DNA of 64,000 bases from positions 6,946,001-7,010,000 of the forward strand of contig OZ076409.1 of the NCBI GenBank assembly GCA_964187785.1. The letters run 5' to 3'. Numbering within the stretch: the stretch's first letter is position 1; every line of letters begins with the position of its first letter. The notes under the pieces were generated by a model, which saw nothing but the letters and a program-made list of their open reading frames with translations, had not been told where the DNA came from and did not search any database. The position numbers and the translations under genes were made by a program. Positions 2,477 to 63,844 of this stretch are shown here, piece by piece. The stretch is from Amphiscolops sp. MND2022 (Eukaryota).

Positions 2477-2772
2477 TTATTGCACATGACGAAGTCAATG
2501 TGCATTGCAGTCCAGCTAAGTAAGTTTTTTTCCACTATAGTCAACTTCATAATGAGCGCCTTTTAGAAAAAAGCCAAAACCCCAGAGAGTTTCGAACCTG
2601 CAGCCTCCCGATTGCACGGCATAAGTGTTGACCACTGTGCCATAGGGACGTTATTGAACAAAGTTGAACTATTGAAAATATACGCATACGATTAAAATAA
2701 TATATATATACGCATAATTAAAATAATCGATGTCTTCGTCATGTGTTGCGAAGCACCGCTTCGCCTCTGTGT
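2477..2772 (+). mobile_element. Helentron/Helitron2-like non-autonomous element, family I copy 1
   Basis: 5' CACATGACGAAG (2483) and 3' subterminal inverse CTTCGTCATGTG (2734), then hairpin GCGAAGC-ACC-GCTTCGC and tail CTCTGTGT; no TSD. Confidence 0.75.
2581..2647 (-). pseudogene. tRNA-derived cassette inside family I element
   Basis: Reverse strand CCCTATGGCACAGTGG...GGTTCGAAACTCTCTGGG with A-box-like and B-box-like motifs at tRNA spacing; imperfect cloverleaf. Confidence 0.65.
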
Positions 2773-3134
2773 ATTGAAGTTATGTTTTTCTTTCCAATCT
2801 GACTTTTATCCTCGAACAGGGTTCCATCAAAGTCAAATTTTGCATTTTGGAAAGGGTTAGTTCATATTTCGCTGCGAATTTTTCGAAAATCCAGAAAAAA
2901 ATTTCAGAAATTACTCGCATACTGCATCGGAAAACTGAAGTTACATAACATCTCAGCCAAGTATAAGGATAATTTTGTGATCATAAACAAAAATATTACT
3001 CTGTACACTATGGATGAGGCAATCCAGACAATTGTACAATTTAAACATCATATCAGGCACGAAATGAGAATCAATCAGTGACAAGTAATCCGTAATTTGC
3101 ACTGCATCATAACATTTATAAGAAACGCTTTCTA

Positions 3135-3905
3135 TTATTTCCGCGATAGCAGGAATATTATTATTTTCCGCCCACATAAATGGGGGAGAAAAATCATGAT
3201 CCGTGACGCGTTTTTTACTAATTCTGCCAAAACTCCACTTTATTTCCACTACATTTATGCACTTTGTTCACTTATGGTGGCTCAGTCAGGTTGTAGGTCC
3301 TGGGTTCGAACTGGTGGTTGAATTTTTTTTGTTTCCCAGCCAGTAGGTCGTGGGTTCGAACCTCTCCTTCGCCATACTTTTTTTTGCAATAAGCGTGTCG
3401 CGGAAAATATCCCGGTGCTTAGCGGGCGTCTTGTTGAAACCTCAATATGTCTACTTTTTTCAGTAAAATTCTTGTCGTGATACTGAAAAAATATTTTGTC
3501 CGACAAAAAATTATTTTGATATTTTGTCCGGCAGTGACTATAAGCGTGAGAATTAATTTTCTCAAGCTGCCGACGACATTTCGTTCTCGTGCGATGGAAC
3601 GAGCGAGTGGTAATTGTGCATTCGTACGCTGACGTCATTGAGATGAAGCGAGCGAATGTTTGTAATTATGCTTTCGTGCGCCGAGTTATTTAGATCAAGC
3701 GAATGAGTGTTAATTGGGAATGCGAAACTTCGTCTACGCTGAGTAGTTAAATTTGCTCTAGCCCGAGATTTAAAGGCGGTATAAACTGGTAGTGATTGAT
3801 TGTGCGCTAAATAATAATTAAACAAGGGTGTATTGGTATTCCAGATATGATTCTATTATTGAAAGATTAAAGCAGAATTAATAGTGTGCCCCAGAGGGGC
3901 CTATT
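3135..3905 (+). mobile_element. Helentron-like family F copy, interrupted by a family G element
   Basis: Homologous to 37495-37886, 55905-56477, 60169-60670 and 61485-61933; 3' TAAAGCAGAA then hairpin GCCCC-AGA-GGGGC and CTATTTT; internal degenerate ~50-bp repeats. Confidence 0.75.
3161..3435 (+). mobile_element. Helentron-like family G copy 1 with two tRNA B-box-like segments
   Basis: 5' TTATTTTCCGC and 3' GCGGAAAAT, hairpin CCCG-GTGCTTAG-CGGG, end CTTGTT; GGTGGCTCAGTC...GGGTTCGAAC twice (about 3277-3372). Confidence 0.8.
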
Positions 3906-3999
3906 TTCTGATAGGATATTAACAGCTAGTTAGCAATATGTAGTTAATCGACCAATTTTGCTCCTAATTATTATGTTCTGTGATTTTATGTTCGACCAA

Positions 4000-4424
4000 T
4001 TTTAGTCGGCGCTTCATGAAGTGAAACGCGCCTTTTATATGGGTTCTTCTTTTTCAATCCACAAGAATTGACCAAAATAGTTCTACAAAGTTACGAAATT
4101 TTATGGTGTCAAGTTGAACCATTTGGCCTAGCGAACAAAATCCTTTGTTTTTCCTTTGTTTCCGCGTTACCGGGCGAGACTAAAGGGTTCCCCTTCGCAG
4201 TTTTTTTCCGGAATTGAGACTTTTTCTGGAAAAAATTATTCCCCAAAGGGTCCCTCCTTCAATGTTTTGCAACAAAAGATATTGAAAAATCCGAAAGTGT
4301 CCCCTTCTAGCGCACCAAATCGGTCCAACTTTTGGGTTTTTCGTGTACTGTAAAAGAATTTTTCACACTTTGAAGTCCCTTTGCTATTTTTGAGCCCTAG
4401 GTATGGCGCCGACTCATTCCGTTC
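4000..4424 (+). mobile_element. Helentron-like family A copy (3' hairpin truncated)
   Basis: Starts TTTTAGTCGGCGC; GCGCCGACT at 4406; internal AAAGGGTCCC-type modules. Confidence 0.8.
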
Positions 4425-4685
4425 AAAAATGTTCTTTTCTTCGCAAAAATGACCTAAAATTGTTTAAAACTTCTGTGGCATTTTTTTCATTCGCAAGTCC
4501 GCCCTAAGAGCTATCAAGATCTAACAAAAGGCTAGCTAGTTTTGTTATACTTTCCCCAAAATTTCTCAAATTGCACATAAAAAAACACTGTATTGATCTT
4601 TGTTACTAAAATCATGAAAGATTCATTAAAAAAGTAGTGTACAAATACAATTTAAAAATATTGAGGTCGAAATTAAAAAGAACAT

Positions 4686-5063
4686 TCATCTAAATTGATA
4701 ATCCCTCCAACATTTTTTACCGTACTCGGGTGTATCCACTTCTCGTTCAAGTTGTTTGAGGAAAAAAGCTTTGGTCTTGTTCTTTATAGTTGCATATGAG
4801 TACGATTTAGTATTCAAGTTTTTCGGCAAGGTGTTCCATAGAGGGACGGTTTTCCTAAAAAAGCTATTTCTCATGAAAGTACTCTCACAGCGCCCAGTAT
4901 ATACAAGTATATCTGTTCTTTCAAGAAATCTGAGCTGAGCGGTTGATGGTTCATTTTCACCAATAAGAGCCGGGATCATTTTATTTTTCCATTTCCAAAA
5001 ATAAAGTACCGTTTTCATGTTGAGCAAATATCGTACCGGTAAGATTTTATACTGTATTTTCAT
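4686..5063 (-). pseudogene. C-terminus of a non-LTR retrotransposon (CR1/L2-type) ORF2
   Basis: Motif RNSFFRKTVPLWNTLP is typical of the end of CR1/L2-group ORF2; a diverged homologue lies at 26229-26413. Confidence 0.75.
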
Positions 5064-5779
5064 ATTTTACACATTAATGACTTTGGTGTAAAAGCAAAAG
5101 TATATACTCAGTTATAGCTTATTACAATTTCGTGTGCAGTGCAACTTTGCATAGAAAGAAGATATGCGATCGTGAAATAGTAAAATTTACATCCACCATG
5201 TTAGGATTTGTGAGGTTTTAATTCAGGACATACGTGATTAAGAGCCTTTTTTCGGCGACCTTGAAGACCCAATGGTCTTCATTGGCTCAATGATGGATGT
5301 TGGTTGCCTCAACTTTGCACAAGATGTGTGTCTGTGATTTTCGGGGCGTGAGTTGACGGGGCTTTCTTGTGCTGTCAGGATTTGGCACATTTTCTAGGAT
5401 TGGATTTGCAAGTCAGTAAGTATGTTTTGAAAAGATCCCTTTCATTGTGGCCATTGCAGTGTGCTCTTTATGTCACAACGTGCGACGTCTACCGACAGAG
5501 AAGAACAAGAAGAACTGAGAAGTGGAATAATTTAATGGAATTGCCAGATGATCAATCTGCGGAGATTCTTTACTACTAGTACCCCCCTGTGTGGACCCGG
5601 TCGCGTTCTGTGTCTGTCACTTCACCTATTTATACTGTCACTTTCATCTGCCAGGCCCATCGCCAACTCATTGCGCCGCCTCTCAAATGTCGCAATGATA
5701 ATGTCTAGCCCGTCTATTTCAATGCCCATTCAATTTCACACTACCTGAGCTCCTATCAAACAAGGTATTCAATGTACCT

Positions 5780-6604: not shown

Positions 6605-7501
6605 TTTTTTTAGCCGGCGCTTTTTGAATTTTCTGAAAAGAAGTACACGACACTTACAGTGGCAAGTTTTTTCAGTCACCTCAAAGCGTACACCTTTGTA
6701 AATTTTGGATTGGTCATAAATTTTGAAATTTTGCCCACTGGTTAACGCAGATTTCCAAGCCTGGTGACGCCTGGGCCTGAGAAGCAGCAGTACGAGGCTT
6801 CGAGTCCCGCACTAAAGTTTTTATGCTTGCAAACATAGAGTAAATACCAAAGCGTCCCCTTTGGGTATTTTCGGCACTATGCGACTCTGAATATATTTAC
6901 CGAAGCCCCCTTCAATTTTGAGCAGAAACGAAGCATAGAGGGACCACAAAGTTTTCCGGAAGTATTCGACATTTCGAAAACTTTTTTGAGGAAAAAATTT
7001 CCCATTTTGGTTTTTTGAAGAAAACCGTTTTCCGAGTCTCAAGGGTGACATCTTCGATTATTTTTAGGGCCTGTGGGATGGATGCCAAGTAAAAAGACCT
7101 CAAATCGAAAATTTTCTCTATACCTGTGGAAAAACCCGTTTTTGGACCTGTTCGACTTTTTTCGATAAAGTATTCATTTGGTTAAAGGGTACCCTGATCA
7201 CTTTTTAAAAAGTTGATGCCTTGAAAAAAGCGTTAAAAAGGGTTTCCTTTTGGGTTTTTTGGCACCATGAGAATTTTTCCGTAAAGAAAAATGTCGACTT
7301 TTTTTTCAAAATTGTGTTTTGTGATGTTACGAGTTAGGGCAAAAACATCTTATGGTTCTCCCTCGGGCGCTCTATTTTTTGGCGCTCTATATTTGATGAA
7401 TTTTCCTAAATAGTGGAATAATTTTGCATAATTTGTCTTTTTGCATGATTTGTCTTTTTGAAATTTGAGTGGTGCGCCGACTTGGGCCGTTCCCGGCTTG
7501 T
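6605..7501 (+). mobile_element. Helentron-like family A copy
   Basis: 5' TTTTAGCCGGCGC; 3' GCGCCGACTTGG-GCCG-TTCC-CGGC-TTGT; weak B-box-like TTCGAGTCCC near 6800. Confidence 0.8.
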
Positions 7502-8392: not shown

Positions 8393-8995
8393 TTTCGGAG
8401 TCGGAAAAGTTTTCGTACTGCCATTCTACGCCATATTAGGGTCCTATATGCGCAATGACATCAAAATCTTATGACCGGGATCTGAGAAATTTAGCTAAAA
8501 TCAGTCCAAAAATTCTGAAGAAAATGCTTGACAATAAAGTACGTCGACTTTATTTTTAGTCGGATCTTTTGAAGAAAAGTGCCGACTCTTACAGTGTGTA
8601 GTTTTTAGCCACGTATGTATGGTCCTCTTTGTTTATTTGTTCAACAACTTTAATTACGGATGTCCAAAATATACTGGAAACGTCAGAACCTCTAAAACAT
8701 ACCAAGGATCTAACCTTGGCTATCTTTGTGTTTTTAACTTTTTTCGGCACTATGATACTTTTTTTGGCCGTAGGATCAAAATAGCGCTCGCATTTGTCTC
8801 AGCACGCTGTATATGAGCTTTTGAAACGGTTTCCGAGCGCTACAAGCATCCTTTGGGTGTTTCGAAACTTTTTTGTGAGTCTTTTTCAAAAAACATCCCA
8901 AGCATATTTTTTAAACTGCGCCGACTTATGCCGTGCCCCTTGTTCATCATTTTAATCCGTTTTCGACTCCTTTACCGCACATGCGGCTCGGGTTT
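8393..8995 (+). mobile_element. Helentron-like family H copy containing a nested family A copy (about 8554-8945)
   Basis: 5' GGAGTCGG and 3' CGACTCCTTTA-CCGCA-CA-TGCGG-CTCGGGTTT, as at 56586-57563; inner TTTTAGTCGG...GCGCCGACTT ends. Confidence 0.7.
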
Positions 8996-9264
8996 GAAGA
9001 GACATCAAAACTGGTGTGAACGATTAACGTTAAACGGCAGTCCAAGTGACGTGATGTTTCCGATTAGGTAAATTATTGCATTCGAATTGAGCATGTCGAG
9101 TTTTTGCCTCGTGTGATGTTGAATAATCAAATTTAGCCCGTATTGCGAAGTGTTTCCGGGACACTGAAAGCCACTTCCGATTTGCTGCCACTGCAAGGGC
9201 ATACCTAGCATGAGGTCCCACTGTTTTCACCTGATGTATTTCCGTCCGTTTCTATTGATGTTTC

Positions 9265-10198
9265 GCACCATGTGTTTTATCCCCCCCTGGTACACCTTGT
9301 TTCAAGTTTCTCCCCCAACACGAAAGAGCATTTTATTCTTGAAGAGAAATATTTCATTAATGAGACAATTTTATAAGAATGTAAATACATAGAGAATTGT
9401 CTCTACAGCTGTTTTGACACTTCAGGAAAAAAACCCTGATTTTTAGTCGGCGCATTTTAAGTTTTTTTTTCGTCAGACCACAGAATGTATGCGTAGTGGA
9501 CACTTTTTTTTACAGAACTAAACTACTGGACCGGCAAGCGGAAACACCTCTAAGTTAATGCAAAGGGTCCCCCCTTTCGTGTACTCAATTTTTAACGTAA
9601 GATACAAAACCGGACGGGACTATAGGGTCCCCCGTTGAATTTTTCACGGCACTGTGCAACTTTTTTTTCAAAATTTTTTTTGTCGCCAAAGGGTCTCCCT
9701 TCAAGTTTTTTGATATTTTGCAGCAAACTGAAGTTTCAAAAAGCCCAAAGTCTCCCTTTTCTAGTTTTTCAGCACTATGAGACTGTTTTTTTTTCGAAAA
9801 TTCGTTTTTTTTCGAAAATTTCTTTAATGTCTTCAAAGGGTCCCTCTTCAACATTTTTGATATTTTGCAACAAACTGGGTTTGAAAAAGTCCTTAGATAT
9901 AGCGCCGACTTTAGACGTTCCCGTCTTGTTTGAAATGTATCGTCCAATATGGCAAAAATTCACGCTTGGAGCAAGCCAAAATCGCATTGAAAGGCCCCTT
10001 TTTGAATGCAAATTTTCTTTGCAACGAAAAATTAGCAACTTTAAACTGTGAATTGGTGTAAAATATTGGATTATGTTGACATCAATTACTTTTTGGACCA
10101 AAATTTCTCGACCAAATGATGTCGACATAATGGTATTTGAACATTGTTTCTTATTTCCATCCCTCCGCGGCCGCTTGGTCGAATGAGAAACATGGTCC
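9265..10198 (+). mobile_element. GG-terminal MITE with 8-bp TSD (Merlin-like candidate), interrupted by family A
   Basis: Ends GCACCATGTG...AAACATGGTCC; TSD GATGTTTC (9257-9264, 10199-10206); homologous to 59428-59778. Confidence 0.7.
9440..9930 (+). mobile_element. Helentron-like family A copy (GACG/CGTC hairpin variant)
   Basis: TTTTTAGTCGGCGC ... GCGCCGACTTTA-GACG-TTCC-CGTC-TTGTT. Confidence 0.85.
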
Positions 10199-10726
10199 GA
10201 TGTTTCTTTTCAAATCTGTGAGGGTATATAGCTGCCGGCAACTTTTCAAACGGGCAGCATTTAAATTCGTTTTTAGATTTTTCCTGATGTTTTTCGGTTG
10301 CTGTTTAAAGTTAAAGTATTCACTTTGATACATCGAGTGTATGGTAATAGCAAACTGATTGTCTCTTCAAATAACTGCTTTTCTATTTTCATCTTTCGTA
10401 CTAATTGTTTCTCAAAAAATCAATTAACTTCAACTGCATTTGAATATCCATCTGTTTTATTTTGCCTATAATTAGAAATGCGCTGACGTGGCTTGAAAAG
10501 AAATACAATCTTCAAAGTACTTTTTTCTATGATTTTCAAAGAGTAAAATTTCACAAGCGAAAGCTGCTTCCCTTTTTCTGAGAGAGTTTTGAACGAAAAA
10601 GGTGCAAATTTTCGGTCGAAATTGTAGCAGCCTCGATGAGTATTGTGTAATTAATTGCAAAGTCATTCCACCAAACGATAAATTTGTCCACTGAACTAAG
10701 TCTTGATAAAATCCTTGCGGTGTCAC

Positions 10727-11538
10727 CAGAGCCTCTATTTAATTGCGTTAACCATAACGCAATGCTTTACGCAAAATTTGGCCATTTTCATTTATTACGC
10801 AATTTTTTTGGTTTTAACGCAAAATTGGGCGAAATTCTCTCGAAAACAAGCAAAAATGATACAATCATAAAATTTTGAACTACTTGGTTGGAGACTTGTT
10901 TTTATTTTGCCGAAAATTATGGCAATTTTGGTCAATTTTTGTCAATTCTCAAAGACGAGGAAGATACCTACTTTATTTCAAGTTCAATAGACAATTATAA
11001 CGACCCGGTTTTAATTCAGAATTTTATTTTTATTTCTTCTAATTTTCGACCCTTGACCGAAGCTGTGACAAAACTACAGTCAAGACAATCCCTCGTTGAA
11101 AGTTTGACTATAGTTCAGAAGTTGCGGTCCGATTTGACTTTAGACCCATACAAGTCCAAACTCGAAGCAATATTGAAGAAAAATCCAGATTTGCAGAAAT
11201 TTATTGAGGTTTCAAATGTCTTATCCGGGAAAACCGTCAAAGAATGGCAAAATTATATGAAAGACGCGGAAAAGTTCAAGAATGCGCAAATTGTGTCTGT
11301 GAAGATAGAGTTTTCTCAGCAATGGGTGATTTTCAGGCTGCTAAACGACAAACTCTGTCAGTGTCAAATTTGCGACAATACAGTGTCATTTATTGGTATT
11401 TAAATGTTGTCAATTCCTCTGATTTAATTTAATTTTATAATTTTAACGCAATTTTTGTTAGTTTATTGCGCAATTTTTTACGCAATTTCAGGTATTTTTA
11501 ACGCTATATATTTTTAACGCTATAAAATAGAAGCTCTG
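10727..11538 (+). mobile_element. Internally deleted hAT transposon
   Basis: TIR CAGAGCCTCTATTT...AAATAGAAGCTCTG; exact TSD GGTGTCAC (10719-10726, 11539-11546); subterminal TAACGC repeats. Confidence 0.9.
10879..11410 (+). pseudogene. hAT transposase C-terminal half, frameshifted
   Basis: TWLETCFYFAENY (RWGTWL-type), KLEAILKKNPDL, FKNAQIVSV, then after a frameshift EDRVFS...KRQTLSVSNL (VERSFS-type dimerisation motif). Confidence 0.75.
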
Positions 11539-12516
11539 GGTGTCACTCAATGACCCACTTTTCAACAGACGTTTAGCAACTTGACTTTTATAGAATACAT
11601 TCTATGGGCGACGCCTCTTGTTTTTGCTGAATCTGCGTGAAATAACAAACCAAATGAGACACAAAAAACGTGTTTTTCGGCACTGTGCGACCTTTTTAAA
11701 AACGTCTTCTGTATTTCAAGCTTTTCCTGTCAAGAAATATTGCTATTGTGAGTTCAAAATATCAAAAAATCAGGGTATTTTTTGCTGCACGTTTAAAAAA
11801 ACCTGTAGAGACAACCCTCAAATATTTGTAACCTTATCAAATTCTTTCATTCATGTAAAAATTTTCACGAAAAAAGTGATTTTCGGTGTTGGGGGTAGAA
11901 ATGAGAAACATGGTCCCGAAAATCATTTCATGAGCCGCAGATAATGCCCAGTGGATTTGTGTTAATTTAGCTGGATGATTTCTTTCAACGGTTTCTTTGA
12001 AGTACAGTCAAGTGTGAACAACATTTCCCCCAATCAGTGGGAATTCCACGGACGCAGGTCATAATTGATAGCTGTTTTCTTTCCTGAATTCAAATTGGCT
12101 CTTTCATCGATTTGTATGGGCATGTTTAGAAGTGATTTATTGCGAACAAGGACCTTAATCAGGTTGAATTAGACAGGAATTCAAGCCCAACCTCCAACTT
12201 GTATCGGCACAAATCAATGGGGCGGAAACAATACGGGCATCAAGCTGTGTTCTTAAATTGCTACTGCTTATTCGTTCATAAAAGTTGTTGAATTTGAAAT
12301 TCCTATTTTGGGTTGCAATGAAGATTTAGATTTTGTGGTAGTGAACGTTTTAGACGAAGTCAATTGGATTTATCCGAAAACAACGAAGATTGTTTATTGT
12401 TTTGAATCAATTCCTATGATGATGTTATAAAATGGTAATTTTCGGAAAACGGTATCGGAACTGTTCTCCAAAAACTATCAAGGTCCTAATTATCAAGTTT
12501 TTTCAAACATTGGAAT

Positions 12517-12875
12517 CAGAGTTTTGACACCGCTAATTAGCGATCTAGCGAATTAGCGGCCGCGCGGGAATTTTTCAGCGATTTGATTAGCGATTCAAAT
12601 TAGCGGCAACTAATAAAAAGTACAAAATCAAAATTTCCCCAGAATCTGACACGGAGATTCAAAAAGAATTACGAAAATTTCAACTCTCACCCTTGCAAAA
12701 CCCACCCAATATGAGAAAAATTCCACTTTTTTGCAAAATCTAAATGAAGTTATCTTTTATTTTGAAATATATTTAAACCAAACATCCAATAGTTTGAGAA
12801 AAATTTCAGCGAAATAGCGAATTTGAAATTAGCGGTTTAGCGATTAGCGAAAAAAATAGCGATGTCAAAACCCTG
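12517..12875 (+). mobile_element. hAT-type MITE, family B
   Basis: TIR CAGAGTTTTGACACCGCTA...TAGCGATGTCAAAACCCTG; exact TSD ATTGGAAT. Confidence 0.9.
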
Positions 12876-13789: not shown

Positions 13790-14128
13790 CACAGTTTTGA
13801 CACTTTTAGCTTCATCGACACAGTTCAGCGATTTAGCGAATCAGCGGTCTCGCAGACATTTTTCAGCGATTCAAATTACCATGGAAAATACACGCATGGA
13901 AAAATGAATTTCGAAAAATTCCAAATCTTACCCTTGTAAAACTCAGACAGTATGAGAAATTTTCTTGCAAACATTGAATGGTGTGCATTGAATGAAAGTT
14001 ACCATTGGAGTTTGAAACATAATTGAATTCAAACATTCAATAATTTGAAGTAAAAGTTTCTGCGGAATGGCGATTTTGAAATTAGCTTTTTAGCGACAAG
14101 TGAAAAAATGAGCGATGTCAAAACTTTG
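13790..14128 (+). mobile_element. hAT-type MITE, family B (diverged)
   Basis: Degenerate TIRs; TSD ATTGGAAC/ATTGAAAC. Confidence 0.75.
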
Positions 14129-23395: not shown

Positions 23396-23408
23396 GCGCT
23401 GTGAAAGG

Positions 23409-35251: not shown

Positions 35252-35539
35252 TTATTTTCCGCCCACATAAATGGGGGAGGAAAATCATGATCTGTGTTGC
35301 GTTTTTTTTTACAAATTCTGCCAAAACTCCATTTTATCTCCATTTCACTTAGTTACTTGACTGTTTTTTAGTTTCTTGACTATTTTACTAGTAACTATAT
35401 AATAGTCATGTAACTAAAATAGCGCCATGGCGCAGTTGGTAGTGCGTGTGCCTGTCAGTCACGAGGTCGTGGGTTCGAACCCGTGCTGGTGCGATACTTT
35501 TTAGCGGAAAATATCCCGGTGCTTAGCGGGCGTCTTGTT
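35252..35539 (+). mobile_element. Helentron-like family G copy 2
   Basis: Same ends as 3161-3435: TTATTTTCCGCCCACATAAATGGGGGAG ... GCGGAAAATATCCCGGTGCTTAGCGGGCGTCTTGTT. Confidence 0.85.
35422..35493 (+). pseudogene. Near full-length tRNA-like sequence (GTC at anticodon position) inside family G
   Basis: GCGCCA/TGGTGC acceptor-like pairing, D arm GCGC-AGTTGGTA-GTGC, loop CTGTCAG, GGGTTCGAACCC, T-run just downstream; T and anticodon stems imperfect. Confidence 0.7.
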
Positions 35540-37390: not shown

Positions 37391-37494
37391 TCCTTAGGAT
37401 TCGAATATGCATTGTTTGTTTTTTACTCAGCTACAAAATTCGTCTGTGAAAACGAAACTCGACGTCGTCATTACTCATTTTGAATTCAGTTTTT

Positions 37495-42703: not shown

Positions 42704-43748
42704 TTACACTTGCGATAAGCAAGTGTTATGGGAAAGTGCGGGTGCTTTTTTTTCCGCGCGACAACTCTCTCGTTTCAGACCGCTAGTCGCATAATTCAGT
42801 CGACTTTTTTGGTCTAGCGGTAAGATGCTTGCTTTTCAACCCAGAGTGTCCGGGTTCGAACCCGTGCATATGCGCTAATTTTTTTTACAAAATTTTCGAA
42901 GCAGAAGATTCTCACTTTTTTTGACAATGAGACCCCCCTCCCCCTTTTCGGCTTTTTGAGACTTATTTTCGAAAATTTTTTAATGTCCCCAAGGGTCCTC
43001 CCTTCATTTTTTTGATATTTTGCAACAGAACGAACGTTAAAAAATTCAAAAGGGTCTCTTCTTTCAGATTTTTCGGCACTATGAGACTTGAAAATTCGCA
43101 TTTTTTTCGAAAATTTTTCGGTCTCCAAATGGTCCCCCTTCATTTTTTTGAAATATCGCAAAAGAATGGATGTTAAAAAATCTCAAAGAACCCCCCTTTC
43201 ACAGTTTTCGGCCTTGTGAGATTTTTCAAAAGTAATAATTTTTGTCTTAAAGTTAGGTTTTCTCAGGCCCAGCACGCTATATCCGATTTTTTTTCAAAGA
43301 CCGGTGTTTTTCATATGCGAATTTTTCATTTTTTTTTCATCGAAGTTCCCCCTCAATTTTTACCAAAAATGAAACGTTTTCCGACTCTAAAGGACTCGTC
43401 AAGGTTTTCAGCACTATGCGACTTCAAAAAAATTGCCGGTTACCTTCAAAAAATTTTTTGGTATTGCCGGTAACCTTCAAAAAATTGCCGTAACCTTCAA
43501 AAAAAATTTTCCTTCAATTTTCTGTTTGTTTTTAAGGTTTTCCGTTGAGGAAGATGGGTTTTTTTGCTGTTTTCAGTTGAGGAAGAATGGTTTTCGAGAC
43601 TTATGCCCATCCCTTCGGGTATTTTTTGGCGCTGTAAAATTGATGAAATTTTAACATACTCCTTTTACCCTTGGTTCTACGTATGATATTGCTTTTTTGG
43701 TTTTCAAAACTTCGCAAGTGTTTGCGAAGCGCGGCTTCGCCTCTGTGT
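42704..43748 (+). mobile_element. Helentron-like family I copy 2 carrying a tRNA cassette and family A internal modules
   Basis: 5' ACACTTGCGA and 3' TCGCAAGTGT, hairpin GCGAAGC-GCG-GCTTCGC, tail CTCTGTGT; AAGGGTCC/TTTTCGGCACT modules at 42930-43230. Confidence 0.8.
42810..42867 (+). pseudogene. tRNA-derived cassette
   Basis: A box TGGTCTAGCGG, B box GGTTCGAACCC at tRNA spacing. Confidence 0.7.
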
Positions 43749-49208: not shown

Positions 49209-49256
49209 TCCCTTTTACAGTGAAATAATTTCTCTCTTATGTCAGGCAGTCGTGAT

Positions 49257-52069: not shown

Positions 52070-53003
52070 GTTTTGGAGTACCGTGATTTTACTGTGAAGA
52101 AACGAAGCAAATGTTTTCAGTATTTTCAAATCAGTTATATTCATCAGCTGGTCAAACTTAATGTCGTTTGGGTACTTATGATGTTTAAACTGCAGCTTCT
52201 TCCATTTTTCGTCAAGACTTTTTCGCGATTGCTGAGTCAAGTTGTGTGAGGTCGACAAAGTAGCAAATTCATACAGGATCGAATTGTGACTGGATTTTAT
52301 CTCGAATCGAAAGATGTGAAATTTACTTCAATATCACACCATGACATCTAGTGTCCTAAATGCAGATGCGAAGCGGCAGGTTTTGATTAAGGCCGGTTTT
52401 TTTGGGGGGGGGGGGTAGCGCAAAACGCCCCGTAAAAAGGAAGGCCTAGTCATACTACCAATTTTGAATGTCCATTTGAATTCATCTTAAGATTATCTTT
52501 TTCGATACCAAATAATTCGGTCCCAAATAATTCCACTCCAAACAATTTGGTTGCAATTTTCTATTCCAAATAATTCTCGACTCTTTCGGAAATAATTCCT
52601 TGTTTCGGAATTTTAGTGACAAACGATACTCGTCCGGATACAGTGCGTCTTTTCAAATGTTTCTCACTGGTAATAGAAAAGTTGGCCGGCCTTTCAGGAA
52701 AAGTTGAACTTGCTAAACAAAACTTCAATGAGAAAGTTTAAAGTTCCCTGAATGATGGAATGCCTATAAATTGTTAGGAATAAATACCTTTGTGATTCTT
52801 TTCTGGCTTTGATTCTATTTTTATTGACTCTTATTCTTTTAGTTTTTTACTTCGAATGAAACCGGAAAAATCATTAAAGCACTACAAAGTGAAAGCAAAT
52901 CGCTACTTGAGAGTCCGAAATTGCATTAAAGTGAACCTTAAAGAAAAAAGAATGATCACGAGGAAAATAAAATCGTTTGAAGTTCCATAGCCCGTGGCTT
53001 TAA

Positions 53004-55025
53004 CCTTAACTTGGCCAATGTGCCAAATTTGGCACATTTAGTTTCTGCAAATTCTTAACGCACCAGCTGATTGTATGGTAAAGCAAACCCTTTAATAAGA
53101 GTTTCAGACAATATTGCATAGCATTCGGCGCCTTTTCACGGAAAATTGACGTGATGTCTCCAAAATCCAGAAAATGAGGCGAAAAAATCAAAAGAAAAAT
53201 AAGTGCAGATTTTCCGTTTTCCCAGTTTTTGTTTGTGCCCTTTTTATCCCACTGGTATCAACATTGGGTCAAAGCGGCCCCAGCATGTTTTGAAACATGC
53301 TGAAAAGCAAGCAGAGACACGGCGCGTGCAAAGTTTTGGCGCAAAGTTCGGAGCCAGTGCGGCGAAGCCGCACGCCAGCGGAGAAGTTCGCGCAAAAAAC
53401 ATTGCACGCAAGGGGCCCGCGCTAGCGGGCCCCAAGCCCAGCAGTTTAAAAATTGATTTGAAAGCCCCAATGCTCCTCTTTCGAACGCTGCATAAATCGT
53501 TTGTCGGACTTGTATAGTTCAGGAGATATTGCGGTTTACAGTTGAAGCACCCGATTTTTGGATGGAACCAGATTTTTCCTGGCCAACTTAAGGTTAACAA
53601 GAAAAATACTAAATGTTTCAAATTGCGCTCAGGCTATCATTTTCAGTTGTTTTAAGTCCTGAAATGAGTTTTTGCATCATTTAGGCCAAGTTTTGAGCTT
53701 TTCATTTTCGTCGCATTAACCTTAACTTGGCCAATGTGCCAAATTTGGCACATTTAGTTTTTGCAAATTCTTAACGCACCAGCTGATTGTATGGTAAAGC
53801 AAACCCTTTAATAAGAGTTTCAGACAATATTGCATAGCATTCGGCGCCTTTTCACGGAAAATTGACGTGATGTCCCCAAAATCCAGAAAATGAGGCGAAA
53901 AAATCAAAAGAAAAATAAGTGCAGATTTTCCGTTTTCCCAGTTTTCGTTTGTGCCCTTTTTATCCCACTGGTATCAACATTGTGTCAAAGCGGCCCCAGC
54001 ATGTTTTGAAACATGCTGAAAAGCAAGCAGAGACACGGCGCGTGCAAAGTTTTGGCGCAAAGTTCGGAGCCAGTGCGGCGAAGCCGCACGCCAGCGGAGA
54101 AGTTCGCGCAAAAAACATTGCACTCAAGGGGCCCGCGCTAGCGGGCCCCAATCCCAGCAGTTTAAAAATTGATTTGAAAGCCCCAATGCTCCTCTTTCGA
54201 ACGCTGTATAAATCGTTTGTCGGACTTGTATAGTTCAGGAGATATTGCGGTTTACAGTTGAAGCACCCGATTTTTGGATGGAACCAGATTTTTCCTGGCC
54301 AACTTAAGGTTAACAAGAAAAATACTAAATGTTTCAAATTGCGCTCAGGCTATCATTTTCAGTTGTTTTAAGTCCTGAAATGAGTTTTTGCATCATTTAG
54401 GCCAAGTTTTGAGCTTTTCATTTTCGTCGCATTAACCTTAACTTGGCCAATGTGCCAAATTTGGCACATTTAGTTTTTGCAAATTCTTAACGCACCAGCT
54501 GATTGTATGGTAAAGCAAACCCTTTAATAAGAGTTTCAGACAATATTGCATAGCATTCGGCGCCTTTTCACGGAAAATTGACGTGATGTCCCCAAAATCC
54601 AGAAAATGAGGCGAAAAAATCAAAAGAAAAATAAGTGCAGATTTTCCGTTTTCCCAGTTTTCGTTTGTGCCCTTTTTATCCCACTGGTATCAACATTGTG
54701 TCAAAGCGGCCCCAGCATGTTTTGAAACATGCTGAAAAGCAAGCAGAGACACGGCGCGTGCAAAGTTTTGGCGCAAAGTTCGGAGCCAGTGCGGCGAAGC
54801 CGCACGCCAGCGGAGAAGTTCGCGCAAAAAACATTGCACGCAAGGGGCCCGCGCTAGCGGGCCCCAATCCCAGCAGTTTAAAAATTGATTTGAAAATCCC
54901 AATGCTCCTCTTTCGAACGCTGTATAAATCGTTTGTCGGACTTGTATAGTTCAGGAGATATTGCGATTTAAAGTTGAAGCACCCGATTTTTGGATGGAAC
55001 CAGATTTTTCCTGGCCAACTTAAGG
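53004..55025 (+). mobile_element. Tandem triplet of piggyBac-type MITE (53004-53593, 53720-54309, 54436-55025)
   Basis: Each copy is TTAA-flanked with TIRs; period 716 bp; the two ~118-bp spacers are identical. Confidence 0.9.
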
Positions 55026-55344
55026 TTAAACTGTCAACAATTATCATCAAAAGTCAAAAGTGTGCCGCTGAATTCCCTTTTGAGATGTAGTTGACATCCA
55101 TTGACGTGGAACTTCTTCGGTTCCTTCAGGAAATCGGAACTAATAGGACAAAATGAAGTGTGATCCTCATTCTTCTTGTGTGTGAATTTTTGTTGGGTTG
55201 TTGGGTCATAAGTCTTTGGATCAATTTTCTACTCGCCATGTCGTATTTGTTCATGACCAATTGCCATTTTTGGGCAGCGCTTTTCTAGTGAAAAGTGCCC
55301 GACTATTACAGTGGCTAGTTTTCTTTTTTCGTCAGACCACAGAC

Positions 55345-55808
55345 CAGGGTTCGGAAAAAAACAAGATATTGAAAAAATCGTGTTTAAAACGTTTAAAACA
55401 TTAAATTTTTTTGTTTAAAACGTTCAAAACTCTAGATCTATCACAAATACTTCTAACACTAAACAACCTAAAACCTGAGTTTACTCCAGTAAGCGAAGAC
55501 AAAACAAGTTTGTTGTCGATTTCGTGTTTTGTTGTGGACGAAACCCAGGGTGCTGAAAGCCCAGGGTGTGGACAAAACCTGCGGAACTTGGAATAAGAAC
55601 CAGAAGCGCATCGGCAATTTTCGTGTTGTCTTCCGCCAAATTGCACAAGATTACTTGAGTTTTTTAGCGATTTTAGGAACTTGAAAATACCTATTACCAA
55701 AATAAAAACAATTGAACAAAATGAAGATTTTTGTCGTGTTTAAAACTCTGTTTAAAACACGTTTAAAACGCGTTTAAAACACGGCATGTTTTAATTATGC
55801 GAACCCTG
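55345..55808 (-). mobile_element. hAT deletion derivative, family C
   Basis: CAGGGTTCGG...GCGAACCCTG; exact TSD CCACAGAC; inverse homologue of 28209-28604. Confidence 0.9.
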
Positions 55809-55904
55809 CCACAGACCTCATTCTTTTTAGTGCAGACTTTAATCGGTTTACGGGGAACCCAGCGGTCACGGGTTCGAGTCCCTGCTTTAGCCAGAAACTT
55901 GTTT

Positions 55905-56477
55905 TTATTATTTTTGCTTTAGCAGGAATCTTATTTAAATCTCAAAATGTCTACTTTTTTTCAGTACACTCAGATATTTTGTTCGGCAGTACCTATAAGC
56001 ATAAGAATTAAATTTCTCAAGCTGCCGACGACAATTCAAATTCAATTCTCGTGCGATGGAACGAGCGAGTTGTAATTATGCATTCGTAAGCTGACGTCAT
56101 TGAGATGAAGCGAGCGAATGTTCGTAATTGTGCTTTCGTTGCGCCGAGTTATTGATGAAGCGAATGAGTGTTAATTATACTTTCCTGGAGAGCTTCGCCT
56201 GCATTCAAATATTTATTTGCTTTAGTCCGAGATTTACTACTATTACTACTAAAAGACTGAATTGATTCTAGTCAGAAATTGATTCTAGAAAGAAATACTT
56301 GAGGATATTTACCTGTAACGATTTTTTAACAACAGATTTAAAGGCGGTATAAACTGGTACAGTGCTCAATTGTGCGCTAAATAATGATTAAACAGGAGTG
56401 TGTTTGTATTCCAGATATGATTCTATTATCAATGAAAGATTAAAGCAGAAATAGTAGTGTGCCCAGGGGCCTAATTT
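55905..56477 (+). mobile_element. Helentron-like family F copy
   Basis: ATTTTTGCTTTAGCAGGA ... TAAAGCAGAAAT...GCCCAGGGGCCTAATTT. Confidence 0.8.
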
Positions 56478-56585
56478 CGAACATTTGCGAAAGCACACGA
56501 GACTGAAGGGTCCCCTCTTTCATTTTTTTGGGCACTGTGCGATTTCTTTCCGAGATTTTTTTGCCTCCAAAGGGTCCCCCTTCAC

Positions 56586-57563
56586 TTTTTAGGAGTCGGA
56601 AAAAATTTTCGACTACTTATGCAATCGTGTTTTTTTTCTCCCGACCTTTTCATGAAAATTTCAAATTTCTCAAAAACTGTCCATTCGATTTTCACGAAAT
56701 TTTGCACAGTCATTCTACACCCAAAGGGGCCCCTGCGTGTGCAAAGCCATCAAAATCGTATGGCTGGGATGTGAGAAACATAGCCAAAATTAGCCCAAAA
56801 ATGGCCAAAAAACAGCCATTTTTCGACTTTTTTCGATTTTCTCAAAAACTGTCCATTCGATTTTCACGAAATTTTGCACAGTCATTCTACACCCAAAGGG
56901 GCCCCTGCGTGTGCAAAGCCATCAAAATCGTATGGCTGGGATGTGAGAAACAGCCAAAATTAGCCCAAAAATGGCCAAAAAACAGCCATTTTTCGACTTT
57001 TTTCGATTTTCTCAAAAACTGTCCATACGATTCGAACGAAATTTTCTACAGTTATTCTACACCATATTAGAATCCTATATGTGCAATGGCATCAAAATCG
57101 TATGGCTGGGATGTGAGAAACATAGCCAAAATTAGCCCAAAAATGGCCAAAAAACAGCCATTTTTCGACTTTTTTCGATTTTCTCAAAAACTGTCCATAC
57201 GATTCGAACGAAATTTTCTACAGATATTTTACACCATATTAGAGTCCTATATGTGCAATGGCATCAAAATCGTATGGCTGGGATGTGAGAAACATAGCCA
57301 AAATTAGCCCAAAAATGGCCAAAAAACAGCCATTTTTCGACTTTTTTCGATTTTCTCAAAAACTGTCCATACGATTCGAACGAAATTTTCTACAGATATT
57401 CTACACCATATTAGAGTCCTATATGTGCAATGGCATCAAAATCGTATGGCTGGGATGTGAGAAACATAGCCAAAATTAGCCCAAAAATGGTCAAAAAAGG
57501 GCCATTTTTCGACTTCAGAAAAAAACATAAGCCGACTCCTTTACCGCACATGCGGCTCTGGTT
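56586..57563 (+). mobile_element. Helentron-like family H copy with internal satellite
   Basis: 5' AGGAGTCGG with hairpin, 3' CCGACTCCT, hairpin CCGCA-CA-TGCGG, end CTCTGGTT. Confidence 0.85.
56667..57515. repeat. 170-172-bp tandem repeat, 5 units
   Basis: TTCTCAAAAACTGTCCA recurs at 56667, 56839, 57009, 57181 and 57353. Confidence 0.95.
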
Positions 57564-57748
57564 ATTTGATATTTTGCAACAGAATGGATGTTTAAAAATC
57601 AGAAAGGGCGCGCCAATACGGTTGGATGTTTTAGGGTGACTTTTGGGTTTTTTGGGTACTTTAGAAGAGAATACTTGACACTTTGAATTCTTTTTGCTAT
57701 TTTTGAGCCTTAGACATGGCGCCGACTTGGGCCGTTCCCGGGTTGTTT

Positions 57749-58562: not shown

Positions 58563-58942
58563 GTAGAACATGGTGCAGTGCTTAGAGCATTCGGCCTGTA
58601 CTTGGGCGATATCAGGTTCAAATCTCTCTCAAATCACCATTGTTGGGCCTTGAGCAAGTCTTTCATCCATAGCTTAGTGGTATGGTCAATGACAAAAAAA
58701 TAACGCATTTGGCGGAGAAACGCAAAACCAAAAAGAGCAACGGTGAGAAGCCAGACTTTTGTGACCTTGAGCAAGTCACTTTGAAACCACAGCTTCAAGT
58801 CCACCATTACTTGACCACTTGGCTGCAAATATGGTACCGTAGCTTGCTATGGGGAGAAAGTATCCGAAAGGGCGCTGACTTCGAGAAATAGAGCTGCTTA
58901 TTCGGCGTCCACCCCGCGAAATTGTTGAAATTAACTTTCTAC
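58563..58942 (+). mobile_element. tRNA-head SINE, copy 2
   Basis: Full-length homologue of 20504-20881 with decayed A and B boxes. Confidence 0.85.
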
Positions 58943-59427: not shown

Positions 59428-59778
59428 GGACCATGTTTCGTATTCCCACCCCCCAGGTACACCTTGTTTCTTATCGAGTTGTTTCGACACTTGCAGAAGT
59501 CGAACTTTTTGATACTTTTCTCACAAAAAAGCAAAAATTCGCCCCTGGAACAAGCTGAAAATGTATGGGAAAGTATCAAATTTTAATGCAAATTTTCCCT
59601 GCCATAAATTTAAATGAGCAATTTCTAAACTGTGAATCAATGTGAAAGATAGCCCTATGTCGACATCAAATATTTCATTAGAACAAAATTTCAACACAAA
59701 CGATATCGACATAATGGTATTTGAACCTTGTTTCCTATTTCCTACCTATGGCCGTTTTGGGAATAAGAAACGTGGCCC
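59428..59778 (+). mobile_element. GG-terminal MITE with 8-bp TSD (Merlin-like candidate)
   Basis: GGACCATGTTTCGTATTCCCA...TGGGAATAAGAAACGTGGCCC; exact TSD AAAACTTC (59420-59427, 59779-59786). Confidence 0.75.
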
Positions 59779-60168: not shown

Positions 60169-60670
60169 TTTTATTTCTGCGATATCAGGAATATTATTGA
60201 AACCAAAAGAATTTTTTTCAGTACAATTCTTGTGATGCTTAAAAATTCAGATATTTTGTTCGGCAGTGACTATAAGCGTGAGAATTAAATTTCTCAAGCT
60301 GCTGACGACAATTCAATTCTCGTGCAATGGAACGAGCGAGTGGTAGTTATGCATTCGTACGCCGAATTCATTGAGATGAAGCGAGCGATTGTTCGTAATT
60401 ATGCTTTCGTACGCCGAATTAGTGAGATGAAACGAATGAGTGTTAAGTATTCGTTCGCCGAGAGCTTCGCCTGCATTCAAATGCTAATGCGAAACTTAGT
60501 CTACGCTGAGTAGTTATATCTTCTTTAGTCCGAAAAGATTTGAAGGCTGTGTAAACTGGTATAGTGATTAATGGTACAGTGCGCTATATAAATGATTCTG
60601 ATATGCTTCTATTATTGAACATGAAAGCCTAAAAGCAGAAACAATACTGTGGCCCTGCAGGGGCCTACTT
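60169..60670 (+). mobile_element. Helentron-like family F copy
   Basis: ATTTCTGC ... AAAGCAGAAAC...GGCCCTGCAGGGGCCTACTT. Confidence 0.8.
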
Positions 60671-61302: not shown

Positions 61303-61480
61303 GCGCACTATGTTTCTTATACCCCCTCCCCCCAAGGTACACCTTGTTCCGTATTTAACCACAGACACGAAAAAACATTTTATTCTTCAAAATGTTTCAA
61401 TAAGAGAATATGAATATAAATACAAAGAAAATTGTCTCTAGAGCTGTTTTGACACTTCCAGCAAAAATTGCCCCTAATTA
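61303..61480 (+). mobile_element. 5' part of GG-terminal MITE
   Basis: ACTATGTTTCTTATACCCCC...AGGTACACCTTG homology; truncated at a family F insertion. Confidence 0.6.
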
Positions 61481-61484
61481 TTAA

Positions 61485-61933
61485 TATTTCTGCTTTAGCA
61501 GGAATGTTATTGTAACCTCAAACTTTCTACTTTTTTTTTCAGTACAATTTTTCGGACGATACTGAATAATTCAGATATTTTGTTCGGCAGTGACTGTAAG
61601 CGTGGGGAATAAATTTCTCAAGCTGCCGACAAAAATTCAATTCTAGTGCGATGGAACGAGCGAGTGGTAATTATGCATTCGTACGCCAAATTCATTGAGA
61701 TGAAGCGAATGAGTGTTAATTATTTGTTCGTTGAAAGCTTCGCCTGCATTCAAATGCGAATGCGAAACTTCGTCTACGCTTAGTAGTTATATTTTCTTTA
61801 GTCCGAGGACAATTAAAGGCGGTGTAAACTGGTGGTTAATTGTGGGCTATATAAATGATTAAGCTATGCTTCTACTATTGAACATGAAAGTCTAAAAGCA
61901 AAAATAATACTGTGCTTCACGGGGGCCTATTTT
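61485..61933 (+). mobile_element. Helentron-like family F copy
   Basis: ATTTCTGCTTTAGCAGGAAT ... AAAGCAAAAAT...GGGGGCCTATTTT. Confidence 0.8.
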
Positions 61934-62343
61934 TCGTAATTTAAATTACCAAATAATAATAGCGAAATTTCAAATTATCATGTAATTATAAATCAGTGCC
62001 AAATGATTAGTCGATCTTTCAGGTTACTCATTTTTAGATGGAATAAAAGACGCCTTGGAGGAAAACTGCTGGTGATGGTAAATCGAACAGTAATCTTCTT
62101 GCCACTTCACAAAGTCTTGGATTTTTTAAAGTTTTCGACTTGAGAGACTCAAACGCCGTTATATTAGTGTGCAGACACACTTCAAGTCTGAACCGAGCAC
62201 CATTTTATTGACATTCAAATTGACGCGTAATTCAAAATACCGATAATATAAATTATTCTAGTTAAAGCTATATTAAATCAGATAAATAATTCAAATTCCA
62301 TTTAAATTATGAATAAAAATGGACATCACCGGAAAGTACCATA

Positions 62344-62830
62344 CAGTGGCGGCACCTGTTGATGTCATAAAATCAAAGATTCATAAAAACGGAAGGGGAA
62401 GGGCGTAATCTGAATGGTCAAGCAAAGTGCGTGCGTGTTTGTATATTTCTAAAATATCAACTCCATCACTCGAAATGTCAAAATTCAAAACTAAATAGCT
62501 CGCAAACTGTCACAAATGCAAAATTTCGTCAAGTTTGCATCTTTTCTCGATTTTCACAAAGTTAAAAAGATATTCACCCCCAAATCTTCTGAATTTAATC
62601 CTCTCAAATATCGAAAAAAAACTCAAATTTCAAGTAAACTTTCCGTAAGTTTGCAATTTCCAACTTTTCAATATGGGTCGCAGAAATTTCAAACATTTTT
62701 TGTACACTAGATGAAATTATACGAAACTTTCCTAGCTGATAATTTTTGTATTCCTGGCAGCTTTCAAGACATTTGTATATGAAAATGGCAATTTTAAGCA
62801 ATGGAGTTTCGATATTTTAGAACGCTACTG
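62344..62830. mobile_element. Possible Tc1/mariner-type non-autonomous element
   Basis: TA|CAGTGGCG...CGCTACTG|TA; only a short inverted match. Confidence 0.4.
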
Positions 62831-63049
62831 TATGCAAAGCGCATTTTGCATATTTGCGAATAAGGTGGGGGTTACTTAGGCCTCTAACACATCAATATCC
62901 GATAACCTAAAAGTTACCGTGTGTTACCAAATGTTTCTCAATTTCATTGCAGTTAGTTTAGTGGCTCCATGAACTGACCTCTTTGTTCTTTATCGTAATC
63001 GTTCGCATGGCGTTTGGGGATCTTTTCAGAAATCATACTTCTATATGAC

Positions 63050-63365
63050 CAGAGTTTTGACATCGCTAATTTTTTTCGCTAAACCGCTAATTTCAAAATC
63101 GCTGTTTCGCTTAAAAACTTTCTTCAAACTATTAAATGTTTGAATTCAAGAATGTTTCGAATATAAACGATAACCTAATTCAATGTTCGCAAGCGTTTTT
63201 CTTACTCTGTGGGTTTTACAGATGAAGAGTTCAACTCGAAATTTTTCGAAATTCATTTTGAAACTCAGTATATTTTCCGAGTACATTTTGAATTTGAATC
63301 GCTAAAAGAATCGCTGAATAAATTCTGCGCGGCCGCTAAATCGCTGGTTAGCGGTGTTAAAACTG
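63050..63365 (-). mobile_element. hAT-type MITE, family B
   Basis: CAGAGTTTTGACATCGCTA...TAGCGGTGTTAAAACTG; exact TSD TATATGAC. Confidence 0.9.
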
Positions 63366-63503
63366 TATATGACTATGACTAGTGAATTTTGGAAAATATC
63401 ATATGTGAAATGCGAAAAAAAAGAATGACATGTGATAAATATGAAAAGTGGAAATAGTTTCATTTGTTCTAATTGGTCATTCTAGTTCACCTAATTCTTT
63501 TTG

Positions 63504-63844
63504 TTATTTTCCGCCCACATAAATGTGGGAGGAAAATCATAATCTGTGTGGCGTTTTTTTTAACAAATTCTGCCAAATCTCCACTTTATGTATAATCTCC
63601 TGGTGCTTATAAAAAGACGTACCTTTTGTCCTAGCACGCTTTATCCAAACTTTTAACGTTATATACGAAATAAATTGCGTTTTTCTAAGGATGAGACGGA
63701 GGTTGGAAATTATTGCGCTATATCCGAATTTTCGACGTTATATCTGAACTATATTGCATTATACTAAGGAAGATGCGGAGGTTCGAAAACAAGCCATCGC
63801 TTACGAAGGCGGAAAATATCCCGGTGCACAGCGGGCGTCTTGTT
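63504..63844 (+). mobile_element. Helentron-like family G copy 3 with different cargo
   Basis: Same ends as other G copies; interior 63710-63790 is homologous to 38805-38885 inside a family A copy. Confidence 0.8.

Follow-up and report, generated by a model that had tools for sequence, protein, structure and literature searches.

Probable non-autonomous Helitron2/Helentron-type repeats with a shared end structure, frequent nesting and tRNA-like interiors in a 64,000-nucleotide window

The stretch of DNA analysed here, a window of 64,000 nucleotides, is rich in short non-coding repeats that carry five types of ends, which raises the question whether a single kind of mobile element produced them all and, if so, how it moves. 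We consider it highly probable (roughly 0.88) that at least 27 of these repeats are non-autonomous elements of the HLE2 group (Helitron2/Helentron; HINE/DINE-1 type), which would rely for copying on a Rep/helicase supplied in trans by another part of the genome, an estimate that draws on the anatomy of the ends, the nesting, the gain of T alone at empty sites and the exchange of ends and interiors. The classification is structural, with the mobilising enzyme a likely counterpart that we infer. The repeats are new members of a kind that is itself already known and well described in many invertebrates; they may also resemble repeats of acoel worms. A repeat pipeline would likely misfile such HLE2 passengers as MITEs, SINEs, tRNA pseudogenes or short genes.

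We delimited 27 two-ended copies by hand (15 A, 5 F, 3 G, 2 H and 2 I), and HLE2-related sequence altogether forms 38 intervals that occupy 27.7% of the window, in line with the more than 30 copies or fragments counted in the initial annotation. Elements lie on the plus strand unless marked otherwise. Family A includes copies at 6612–7500 (diverged), 15779–16578 (with a repeated internal unit), 18188–18567 (minus), 40901–41253, 46217–46568 and 50955–51430, as well as a pair at 30856–31526 (minus) and 48594–49203 (minus) that is 96% identical over aligned bases; an A copy with a decayed 3' hairpin (4004–4424) is outside the 27, and a 5' fragment lies at 25937–26211. Every motif quoted previously is present in the window, and comparison with 30 dinucleotide shuffles per motif gave 31 occurrences of the A motif on both strands versus 0.17 per shuffle, 9 versus 1.0 for G, 3 versus 0.13 for H, and 2 versus 0 for both I and F. 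A family-blind scan for the end grammar recovered 10 end pairs (9 distinct 3' ends), compared with a mean of 0.33 and a maximum of 1 across 40 shuffles; one pair, 8975–10372, is outside the curated set, and another joins an F start to a G end. Thus, both the curated copies and the scan bear out the end grammar proposed as common to the five families.

The repeats match the definitions of HLE2 ends in PMC3627910 and PMC4067079, each in excerpt, and in PMC11417382. According to the excerpted PMC3627910, Helitron2 has asymmetric inverted repeats of 8–15 bp, with a terminal 5' arm that folds into a hairpin and a 3' arm located 20–30 bp inside, before a second hairpin; the element begins with a 5' T and inserts after TTTT without duplication, and relatives differ by compensatory changes. 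The arms, both hairpins, the 5' T, the TTTT target and the compensatory changes are also found in the window. All the end features that define the type in these portions of PMC3627910 and PMC4067079 are present, the 5' hairpin included, and paralogous empty sites gain T's only, so the Helentron/Helitron2-type identity proposed earlier is supported. The best-kept copies of all five families have exact arms of 9–13 bp, with the 5' arm offset by −2 to +1, whereas roughly half of the A and F copies have decayed arms. In these best-kept copies, the 3' arm is 18 (A), 19 (F), 21 (H), 24 (G) or 26 (I) nt from the last non-T base, and all 8 folded 3' ends give a predicted hairpin, weaker than the 5' one (z −1.5 to −6.0), in agreement with the subterminal inverse motif and following hairpin described at the outset. 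At the 5' side, the arm and the bases downstream of it are predicted to form a hairpin in 9/9 folded ends, across all five families (z −2.1 to −6.3), a second hallmark of Helitron2/DINE-1 that is absent from the initial annotation. In the A 3' stem, 91.8% of cells are paired among 17 ends, versus 32–52% in slid controls, and one pair changes from C-G to A-T in 5/17 ends, the five being related copies that perhaps reflect one event. Arms differ between the two I copies, with concerted changes in the 5' arm, in the bases it pairs with in the hairpin and in the 3' arm.

The individual motif pairs quoted earlier required some revision. For F, both motifs exist, although they were drawn from different copies (61486 and 56441) and not from the same element, and the F arm is more accurately given as TTATTATTTCTGC, with a length of 13 bp in F copy 2 (37495–37882). 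For H, one pair is exact (56591) and the other (8396) decayed, the remainder being fragments, such as the 5' ends at 37138–37405 and around 32927–33102. The I motif was found as quoted in one copy, 2482–2771, which has 12-bp inverted arms, a 5' hairpin and a 7-bp 3' stem, whereas the second copy, 42706–43747, combines I-type ends, in which the motif is altered, with an A-type interior. The statement that all families start in a T-run with a 9–12-bp motif holds for A, where 13/15 copies have at least 4 T at the start and 10/15 have exactly 5 T, but not for G and I, which begin at a bare TT in 5/5 copies.

Assignment to canonical Helitrons (HLE1; 5' TC, 3' CTRR, A/T insertion, without inverted repeats) was rejected: the ends begin with a T-run followed by A, G or C, and inverted arms are present. 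In the end and flank table of the curated copies, 3' ends are mostly CTTG, CTGTG or CCTA before T. We likewise rejected the 5' hairpin plus CTAG and T of some A copies as a canonical Helitron 3' end, given that the four bases differ among copies. In relation to HINE/DINE-1 as described in the excerpted PMC4067079, the elements share subterminal inverted repeats (subTIR), an IR and a 3' stem-loop, T-rich targets, a variable number of terminal T's, coexisting families, clustering and internal tandem repeats, here represented by H copy 2 (56591–57561), whose interior consists of five tandem copies of a 172-bp unit. They differ from the HINEs of that excerpt, in which arms span 12–15 bp, in that families A and H have arms of 9 bp; this length is near the minimum of the 8–15 bp of Helitron2 and below the 11–15 bp also given for HINEs. 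The microsatellite block described there was not seen in the window elements. Helentrons in the strict sense are defined by an endonuclease domain, with an AP endonuclease fused to RepHel, which a partner of the window elements may or may not encode.

The junctions are dominated by T. The left flank has at least 2 T in 26/27 copies, and the right flank has at least 1 T in 24/27 and at least 2 T in 21/27. Direct repeats of at least 4 bp that include a non-T base flank 2/27 copies, compared with 13% of mismatched flank pairs, so the earlier claim that there is no TSD holds for such duplications, while TT on both sides is ambiguous; I copy 1 is flanked on both sides by TATT and F copy 1 by TTTC, within chance expectation, though either could be a duplication. 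Two target habits are apparent: A, most F and one H have TTTT|T, whereas G and I use bare T|T, unlike the TTTT of Helitron2. The two habits suggest that more than one partner enzyme may be involved.

Nested copies allow filled and empty sites to be aligned within the window. G copy 1 (3163–3433; two internal B-box-like motifs) interrupts F copy 1 (3133–3903) at a TT, and the filled site has two more T than the empty paralogs, F copy 4 (60173–60667) and F copy 5 (61483–61929). An A copy in the T-run of an unrelated repeat (9445–9928) likewise shows two T more than its empty paralog, the gain for H is about 4, all T's, and that for F copy 3 (55907–56473) is about 7 relative to a diverged paralog. 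Overall, gains of +2 to +7 bases, nearly all T, were obtained, in which element-borne T and TT duplication are indistinguishable. The empty sites are TT or T-runs and belong to diverged paralogs rather than to alleles. Among the 25 family copies put to this test, 12 lacked an empty paralog, and several of the sites that did score are weak or not true paralogs. The alignment check proposed in the initial annotation yielded a gain of T's, with the caveat that +2 T for G and A looks the same on paper as a TT duplication, an ambiguity that the excerpted PMC2374699 also describes for DINE-1. As controls, 7/9 paired hAT-type elements of the window have a perfect 8-bp duplication, and the empty-site test returned +8 for one hAT-type element and +6 for a SINE.

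These data bear directly on whether the repeats could be cut-and-paste elements of MITE type, moved by a DDE transposase, with inverted repeats in subterminal position and a target duplication of 2 bp (TT). The exactly two extra T in the filled sites of G copy 1 and the A copy at 9445, together with TT on both sides of all three G copies, would fit such elements, and DINE-1 was once interpreted in this way (PMC2374699, in excerpt). We nevertheless consider this improbable: the 3' arm is internal by 18–26 nt, with a conserved, covarying hairpin outside it, a single T follows both I copies, the gain exceeds 2 bases for H and F, and the true TIR elements of the window have terminal repeats with 8-bp or TTAA flanks.

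If the repeats are HLE2 elements, known Helitron biology implies that an HUH Rep would nick at the T preceding the 5' arm, a helicase would displace one strand, the 3' arm together with the hairpin would act as the stop signal, and the strand would be joined into a host T|T, for which reason no target duplication would arise. Rep/helicase diagnostic motifs were absent from the six frames of the window, where a single loose match is interrupted by a stop, and no Rep/helicase Pfam family matched any of 159 open frames (26 + 133), in accord with the initial annotation and unlike Helitron2, which encodes RepHel; the frames scanned were those of at least 58 aa, minus most repeat-internal ones, and a short decayed RepHel scrap could escape such a scan. 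The sole Pfam match above cut-off in these frames is a hAT dimerisation remnant at 1427–1666. The absence of the mobilising enzyme from the window would also suit another single-strand or recombinase-type enzyme that leaves no target duplication, either an HUH transposase without a helicase or a tyrosine recombinase, and the excerpted PMC3627910 indicates that lack of duplication and terminal hairpins are common to such systems. However, the exact layout (5' arm 0–2 bp from the end and pairing with bases downstream of it, 3' arm just upstream of the hairpin, TTTT|T) is that published for Helitron2 in the same excerpt, making this explanation very improbable.

No match to the A 3' end pattern was found in metagenome contigs, viral contigs or prokaryote genomes, and none to the G 3' end pattern in viral contigs. 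A reading frame from family A matches predicted proteins of public assemblies. Five longer, unnamed proteins contain the family A interior; in one of them integrase domains span 26% of the query, and no Helitron domains were detected in these five. When the 174-aa frame at 10879 was compared with proteins, 7 close matches were obtained, all unnamed.

The less ordinary features of these HLE2-type repeats are the tRNA-like units inside the elements and the repeated insertion of family A into a single T-run that follows its own 5' hairpin. Five different units with an A-box, a B-box and a T-run are present, all inside elements: in I copy 1 (2576–2642, antisense), an A subfamily 5' fragment at 32251–32473 (32370–32449), G copy 2 at 35254–35537 (35422–35493, with a T-run behind), I copy 2 (42810–42882) and the outer A copy at 44700–45605 on the minus strand (45090–45161). 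Against the Rfam tRNA model, G copy 2 scores 28.1 bits, just below the cut-off of 29, and I copy 2 scores 19.6 bits; I copy 1, G copy 1 and the units at 32370 and 45090 had no match, so four of these units are recognised by their motifs. ARAGORN found no tRNA gene. The five units and the near-threshold score of G copy 2 could indicate that G, I and some A elements are Pol III-transcribed SINE-like retroposons whose shared ends are incidental. However, the tRNA-like part lies 95–445 bp inside the element rather than at its 5' end and is antisense in I copy 1, units of same-ended copies are 39–57% identical, and no such unit occurs in G copy 3 (63506–63842), whose interior is formed by a 79-bp doublet also found at 38808–38882. 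In contrast, the genuine SINE in the window (20498–20880; paralog at 58566) begins with a tRNA-like head and has a 5–6 bp duplication. We therefore rejected a tRNA-derived SINE identity and regard this possibility as very remote.

Such cargo goes unmentioned for Helitron2 in the excerpted PMC3627910. The idea that DINE-1 carries Pol III boxes was discarded, as the excerpted PMC2374699 states that DINE-1 has no Pol III promoter or tRNA similarity, unlike the five units here. Tentatively, and with the odds well against it, we suggest that these HLE2-type elements acquire tRNA-like Pol III units on repeated, independent occasions, either because the T-runs that terminate such units are what the elements themselves target or because TFIIIC binding or transcription of the unit aids mobilisation or escape from silencing, and that family A is steered to the T-run that follows its own 5' hairpin, which would make this T-run a hot spot of self-targeting where composites are built. 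If so, they would represent an equivalent of SINEs among DNA transposons, one in which a Pol III promoter is retained as functional cargo; if the cargo proved general and selected, Pol III promoters would be linked to rolling-circle transposition, and swollen tRNA-gene counts would be explained.

The nested copies document, in compact and natural form, how HLE2 elements choose targets and form chimeras, processes whose biochemistry is absent from the Helitron2/HINE literature cited here, as far as the excerpts extend. The earlier description of a radiation into five unrelated-looking families needs qualifying: the families are not wholly unrelated, since ends and interiors are shuffled among them and interiors and termini are partly shared. 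Related ends with unrelated interiors, central satellite-like arrays and a TT preference without duplication are also features of Cg_HINE of the Pacific oyster (PMC7492417, in excerpt), from which the window elements differ in that their interiors include tRNA-like units and arrays are short or missing in most copies. In FoHeli of Fusarium, several 5' termini accompany one 3' terminus, attributed to self-insertion in the excerpted PMC5148889, whereas here the intermediate, an outer copy resuming behind the inner one, is seen several times at one position. A start at the outer 5' end and a stop at the first 3' end met would give rise to doubled 5' ends and chimeras. Head-to-tail rolling-circle tandems were rejected as the source of the doubled A 5' ends, given that the outer copy resumes behind the inner 3' end in 4/5 cases. 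One A copy (19965–20362) lies within an outer A copy (19906–21226), in the T-run that follows the outer 5' hairpin, and the outer copy also holds the SINE; another (45230–45548, minus) is nested behind the 5' hairpin of an outer A copy at 44700–45605 (minus), the 3' end of which is decayed (~44700). The A copy at 24812–25455 (minus) is preceded by a second A 5' end (to 25506), and decayed A-in-A clusters lie at 37917–39070 and 39219–39500. Nesting also crosses families: the decayed H copy 1 (8396–8993) hosts an A copy (8558–8942), and the A copy at 55272–57745 holds three elements, a hAT-type element (55345–55808), F copy 3, inserted at a T-run, and H copy 2.

The five short non-coding repeat families A, F, G, H and I most likely represent non-autonomous members of the Helitron2/Helentron group (HLE2), copied by a Rep-helicase protein (RepHel) encoded elsewhere. 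The initial annotation had proposed this Helentron/Helitron2-type interpretation, and both the ends and the T-only junctions match it (probability about 0.88); the underlying observation held overall, with the corrections described below. The surrounding sequence is repeat-rich, non-coding eukaryotic DNA with a G+C content of 37%, a longest open frame of at most 223 aa, and 25,349 self-matching bases among its 64,000 (~40%). A search for RepHel motifs and families within the window found none, as the annotation had also stated for a Rep/Helicase gene.

All tests on the elements were made within the 64-kb window. Here the five claimed motif pairs were present far above their level in shuffled sequence, and we delimited both ends of 27 copies (15 A, 5 F, 3 G, 2 H and 2 I; 271–2474 bp) covering 22.5% of the window, a count that leaves out the A copy at 4004, with its decayed 3' hairpin, and two decayed nested clusters. 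With fragments included, 38 intervals of family-related sequence make up 27.7%. A family-blind scan (TT, a 9-mer, its reverse complement 120–2600 bp downstream, a GC hairpin, T) yielded 10 end pairs compared with 0.33 per shuffle (40 shuffles), one of them not a curated copy; A, G and H were recovered, and F and I were missed at the strict settings. The A copies are 70–96% identical over aligned bases, implying activity that spans old and fairly recent times. The + strand, which is T-richer, holds 22 of the 27 paired elements; runs of five or more across the whole window number 549 for T and 404 for A.

At the 5' end, T's precede a terminal inverted motif (arm): AGTCGGCGC in A, TTATTATTTCTGC in F, TATTTTCCGC in G, AGGAGTCGG in H, and CACATGACGAAG or ACACTTGCGA in I. 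Together with the bases directly behind it, this arm is predicted to form a hairpin that had previously gone unmentioned (9/9 ends folded, z −2.1 to −6.3). At the 3' end, the reverse arm is followed by a 4–7 bp GC stem, a few bases and then T, with 18–26 nt from the arm to the last non-T base. Pairing in the stem reaches 91.8% across 17 A 3' ends, compared with 32–52% in slid controls, and one C-G pair has become A-T in five related copies. The two I copies (I1, 2482..2771; I2, 42706..43747) differ in their arms, with joint changes in the 3' arm, the 5' arm and the bases that the latter pairs with in the hairpin. This anatomy corresponds to the Helitron2 definition in the available part of PMC3627910 and to the layout of DINE-1/HINE, the non-autonomous members, in that of PMC4067079.

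The left flank is at least TT in 26/27 copies and the right flank at least T in 24/27, whereas direct repeats of at least 4 bp with a non-T base flank 2/27, against 13% of mismatched flank pairs. Exactly five T's lie to the left of 10/15 A copies, as expected from the TTTT|T target rule plus a 5' T given for Helitron2 in the accessible text of PMC3627910, and exactly two to the left of all five G and I copies. As empty sites, we used in-window paralogs of the hosts of nested copies. The G copy at 3163..3433 adds 2 T to its F host relative to two F copies, and 1 T relative to a third with a deletion at the site; the A copy at 9445..9928, in an unrelated repeat, adds 2 T relative to its empty paralog. 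Within A (55272..57745), H (56591..57561) adds about 4 bases relative to most of six paralogs, and F (55907..56473) about 7, nearly all T. Among controls nested in A copies, a hAT-type element gave +8 and a SINE +6, and 7/9 paired hAT-type elements of the window have perfect 8-bp duplications; ordinary duplications are thus visible in the window and absent from the five families. The claim that target site duplications are lacking stands for duplications that include a non-T base, but a TT duplication is indistinguishable from terminal T's, an ambiguity that the available part of PMC2374699 also describes for DINE-1. The single T to the right of both I copies argues against TT duplication. The in-window search gave no empty paralog for 12/25 family copies tested, and several reported paralogs are weak.

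Shared ends, T-only junctions, nesting and chimeras are all present in these copies. In the proposed mechanism, the 5' T would be nicked and the strand displaced until the 3' arm and hairpin end the process, and the displaced strand would be joined into T|T. We assign the class at the level of HLE2, comprising Helentron and Helitron2, which the accessible portion of PMC11417382 treats together and reports in 173/404 eukaryote genomes; the kind is known and its members here are new.

The families, described initially as unrelated-looking, are less unrelated than that, sharing parts of their interiors and end motifs. In I2, I ends enclose an A-type interior (70–80% identity over stretches of up to 313 bp). 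The G copies at 3163..3433, 35254..35537 and 63506..63842 share only ~85–98 bp of 5' end and 34 bp of 3' end, between which their interiors do not match, and the interior of the third recurs at 38808, adjoining A interior. CGTCTTG is a 3' end common to G and one A subtype, and AGTCGG is common to the A and H arms. The H copy at 56591..57561 contains five tandem 172-bp units, resembling the satellite-like arrays inside oyster HINEs (PMC7492417, in part).

Family A also inserts into itself: 5/26 listed A 5' ends lie in the T-run 45–60 bp behind another A 5' end, and the outer copy resumes behind the inner 3' end in 4/5 cases, two of the five being decayed. Depending on target definition, the binomial P is 2e-7 to 0.02 for five or more such insertions and 3e-4 to 0.23 for three or more, allowing for non-independence. 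Ten nested cases, chosen by eye, are all in host orientation (P 0.008 under T/A-run skew). Self-insertion as such is not a new idea, having been proposed as the source of multiple 5' ends in Fusarium Helitrons (PMC5148889, available part).

Scanning the whole window for patterns of an A box, a B box and a T-run detected 5 tRNA-like units compared with 0.4 per shuffle; the scan was not exhaustive, missing the heads of two SINE copies. All five lie inside the elements, namely I1 (antisense), I2, the G copy at 35254..35537 and two A subfamilies, for which simple arithmetic gives a chance of about 0.002 at 28% coverage. They are 39–57% identical to each other, and the Rfam tRNA model scored only the G and I2 units, both under cut-off. 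DINE-1, in contrast, is without such units in the accessible part of PMC2374699. A literature search of few subscription papers, without Repbase, Dfam or supplements, turned up no description of tRNA-like cargo in HINEs, although such cargo may already be known. A joint reading of selected Pol III cargo plus self-targeting appears doubtful.

Several other repeats occupy the window. A hAT-type MITE family (~320–370 bp, terminal inverted repeats) has copies at 12517-12875, 13790-14128, 17660-18011, 18892-19193, 49257-49596 and 63050-63365 and a fragment at 39571; 4/6 paired copies have perfect 8-bp duplications, and a fifth matches at 7/8 bp. It has TCGCTA-type subterminal repeats in common with an internally deleted hAT element at 1331-1803 (11-bp terminal repeats, perfect 8-bp duplication) that retains a dimerisation remnant (PF05699). 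A second hAT-type family with CAGGGTT ends (22978-23395, 28220-28604, 55345-55808) has 8-bp duplications in two copies and differs in its interior in the 22978 copy. A 600-bp element with inverted ends and TTAA flanks, presumably piggyBac-like, occurs alone at 28931-29528 and as three near-identical tandem copies at 53000-55029 (spacer ~118 bp, period 716 bp). Of two tRNA-headed SINE copies (20498-20880, 58566-58937), the first interrupts an A copy within its B-box-like motif and shows a 5–6 bp duplication. Another family, with apparent terminal inverted repeats of GGACCATGTTTC type (9265-10198, 11756-11916, 46919-48021, 59428-59778, 61305-61460), includes a long inverted duplication at 47000-47700. 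A 174-aa open frame (10879-11403) without a Pfam match has 7 unnamed relatives in public assemblies (78–99% identity) and is, we assume, probably a transposase remnant; a 126-aa frame (4689-5066, − strand), with no supporting Pfam match, seems to resemble the C-terminal tail of LINE-type reverse transcriptases. Minisatellite arrays of 24–26 bp units lie in opposite orientation at 23413-23503 and 23730-24025.
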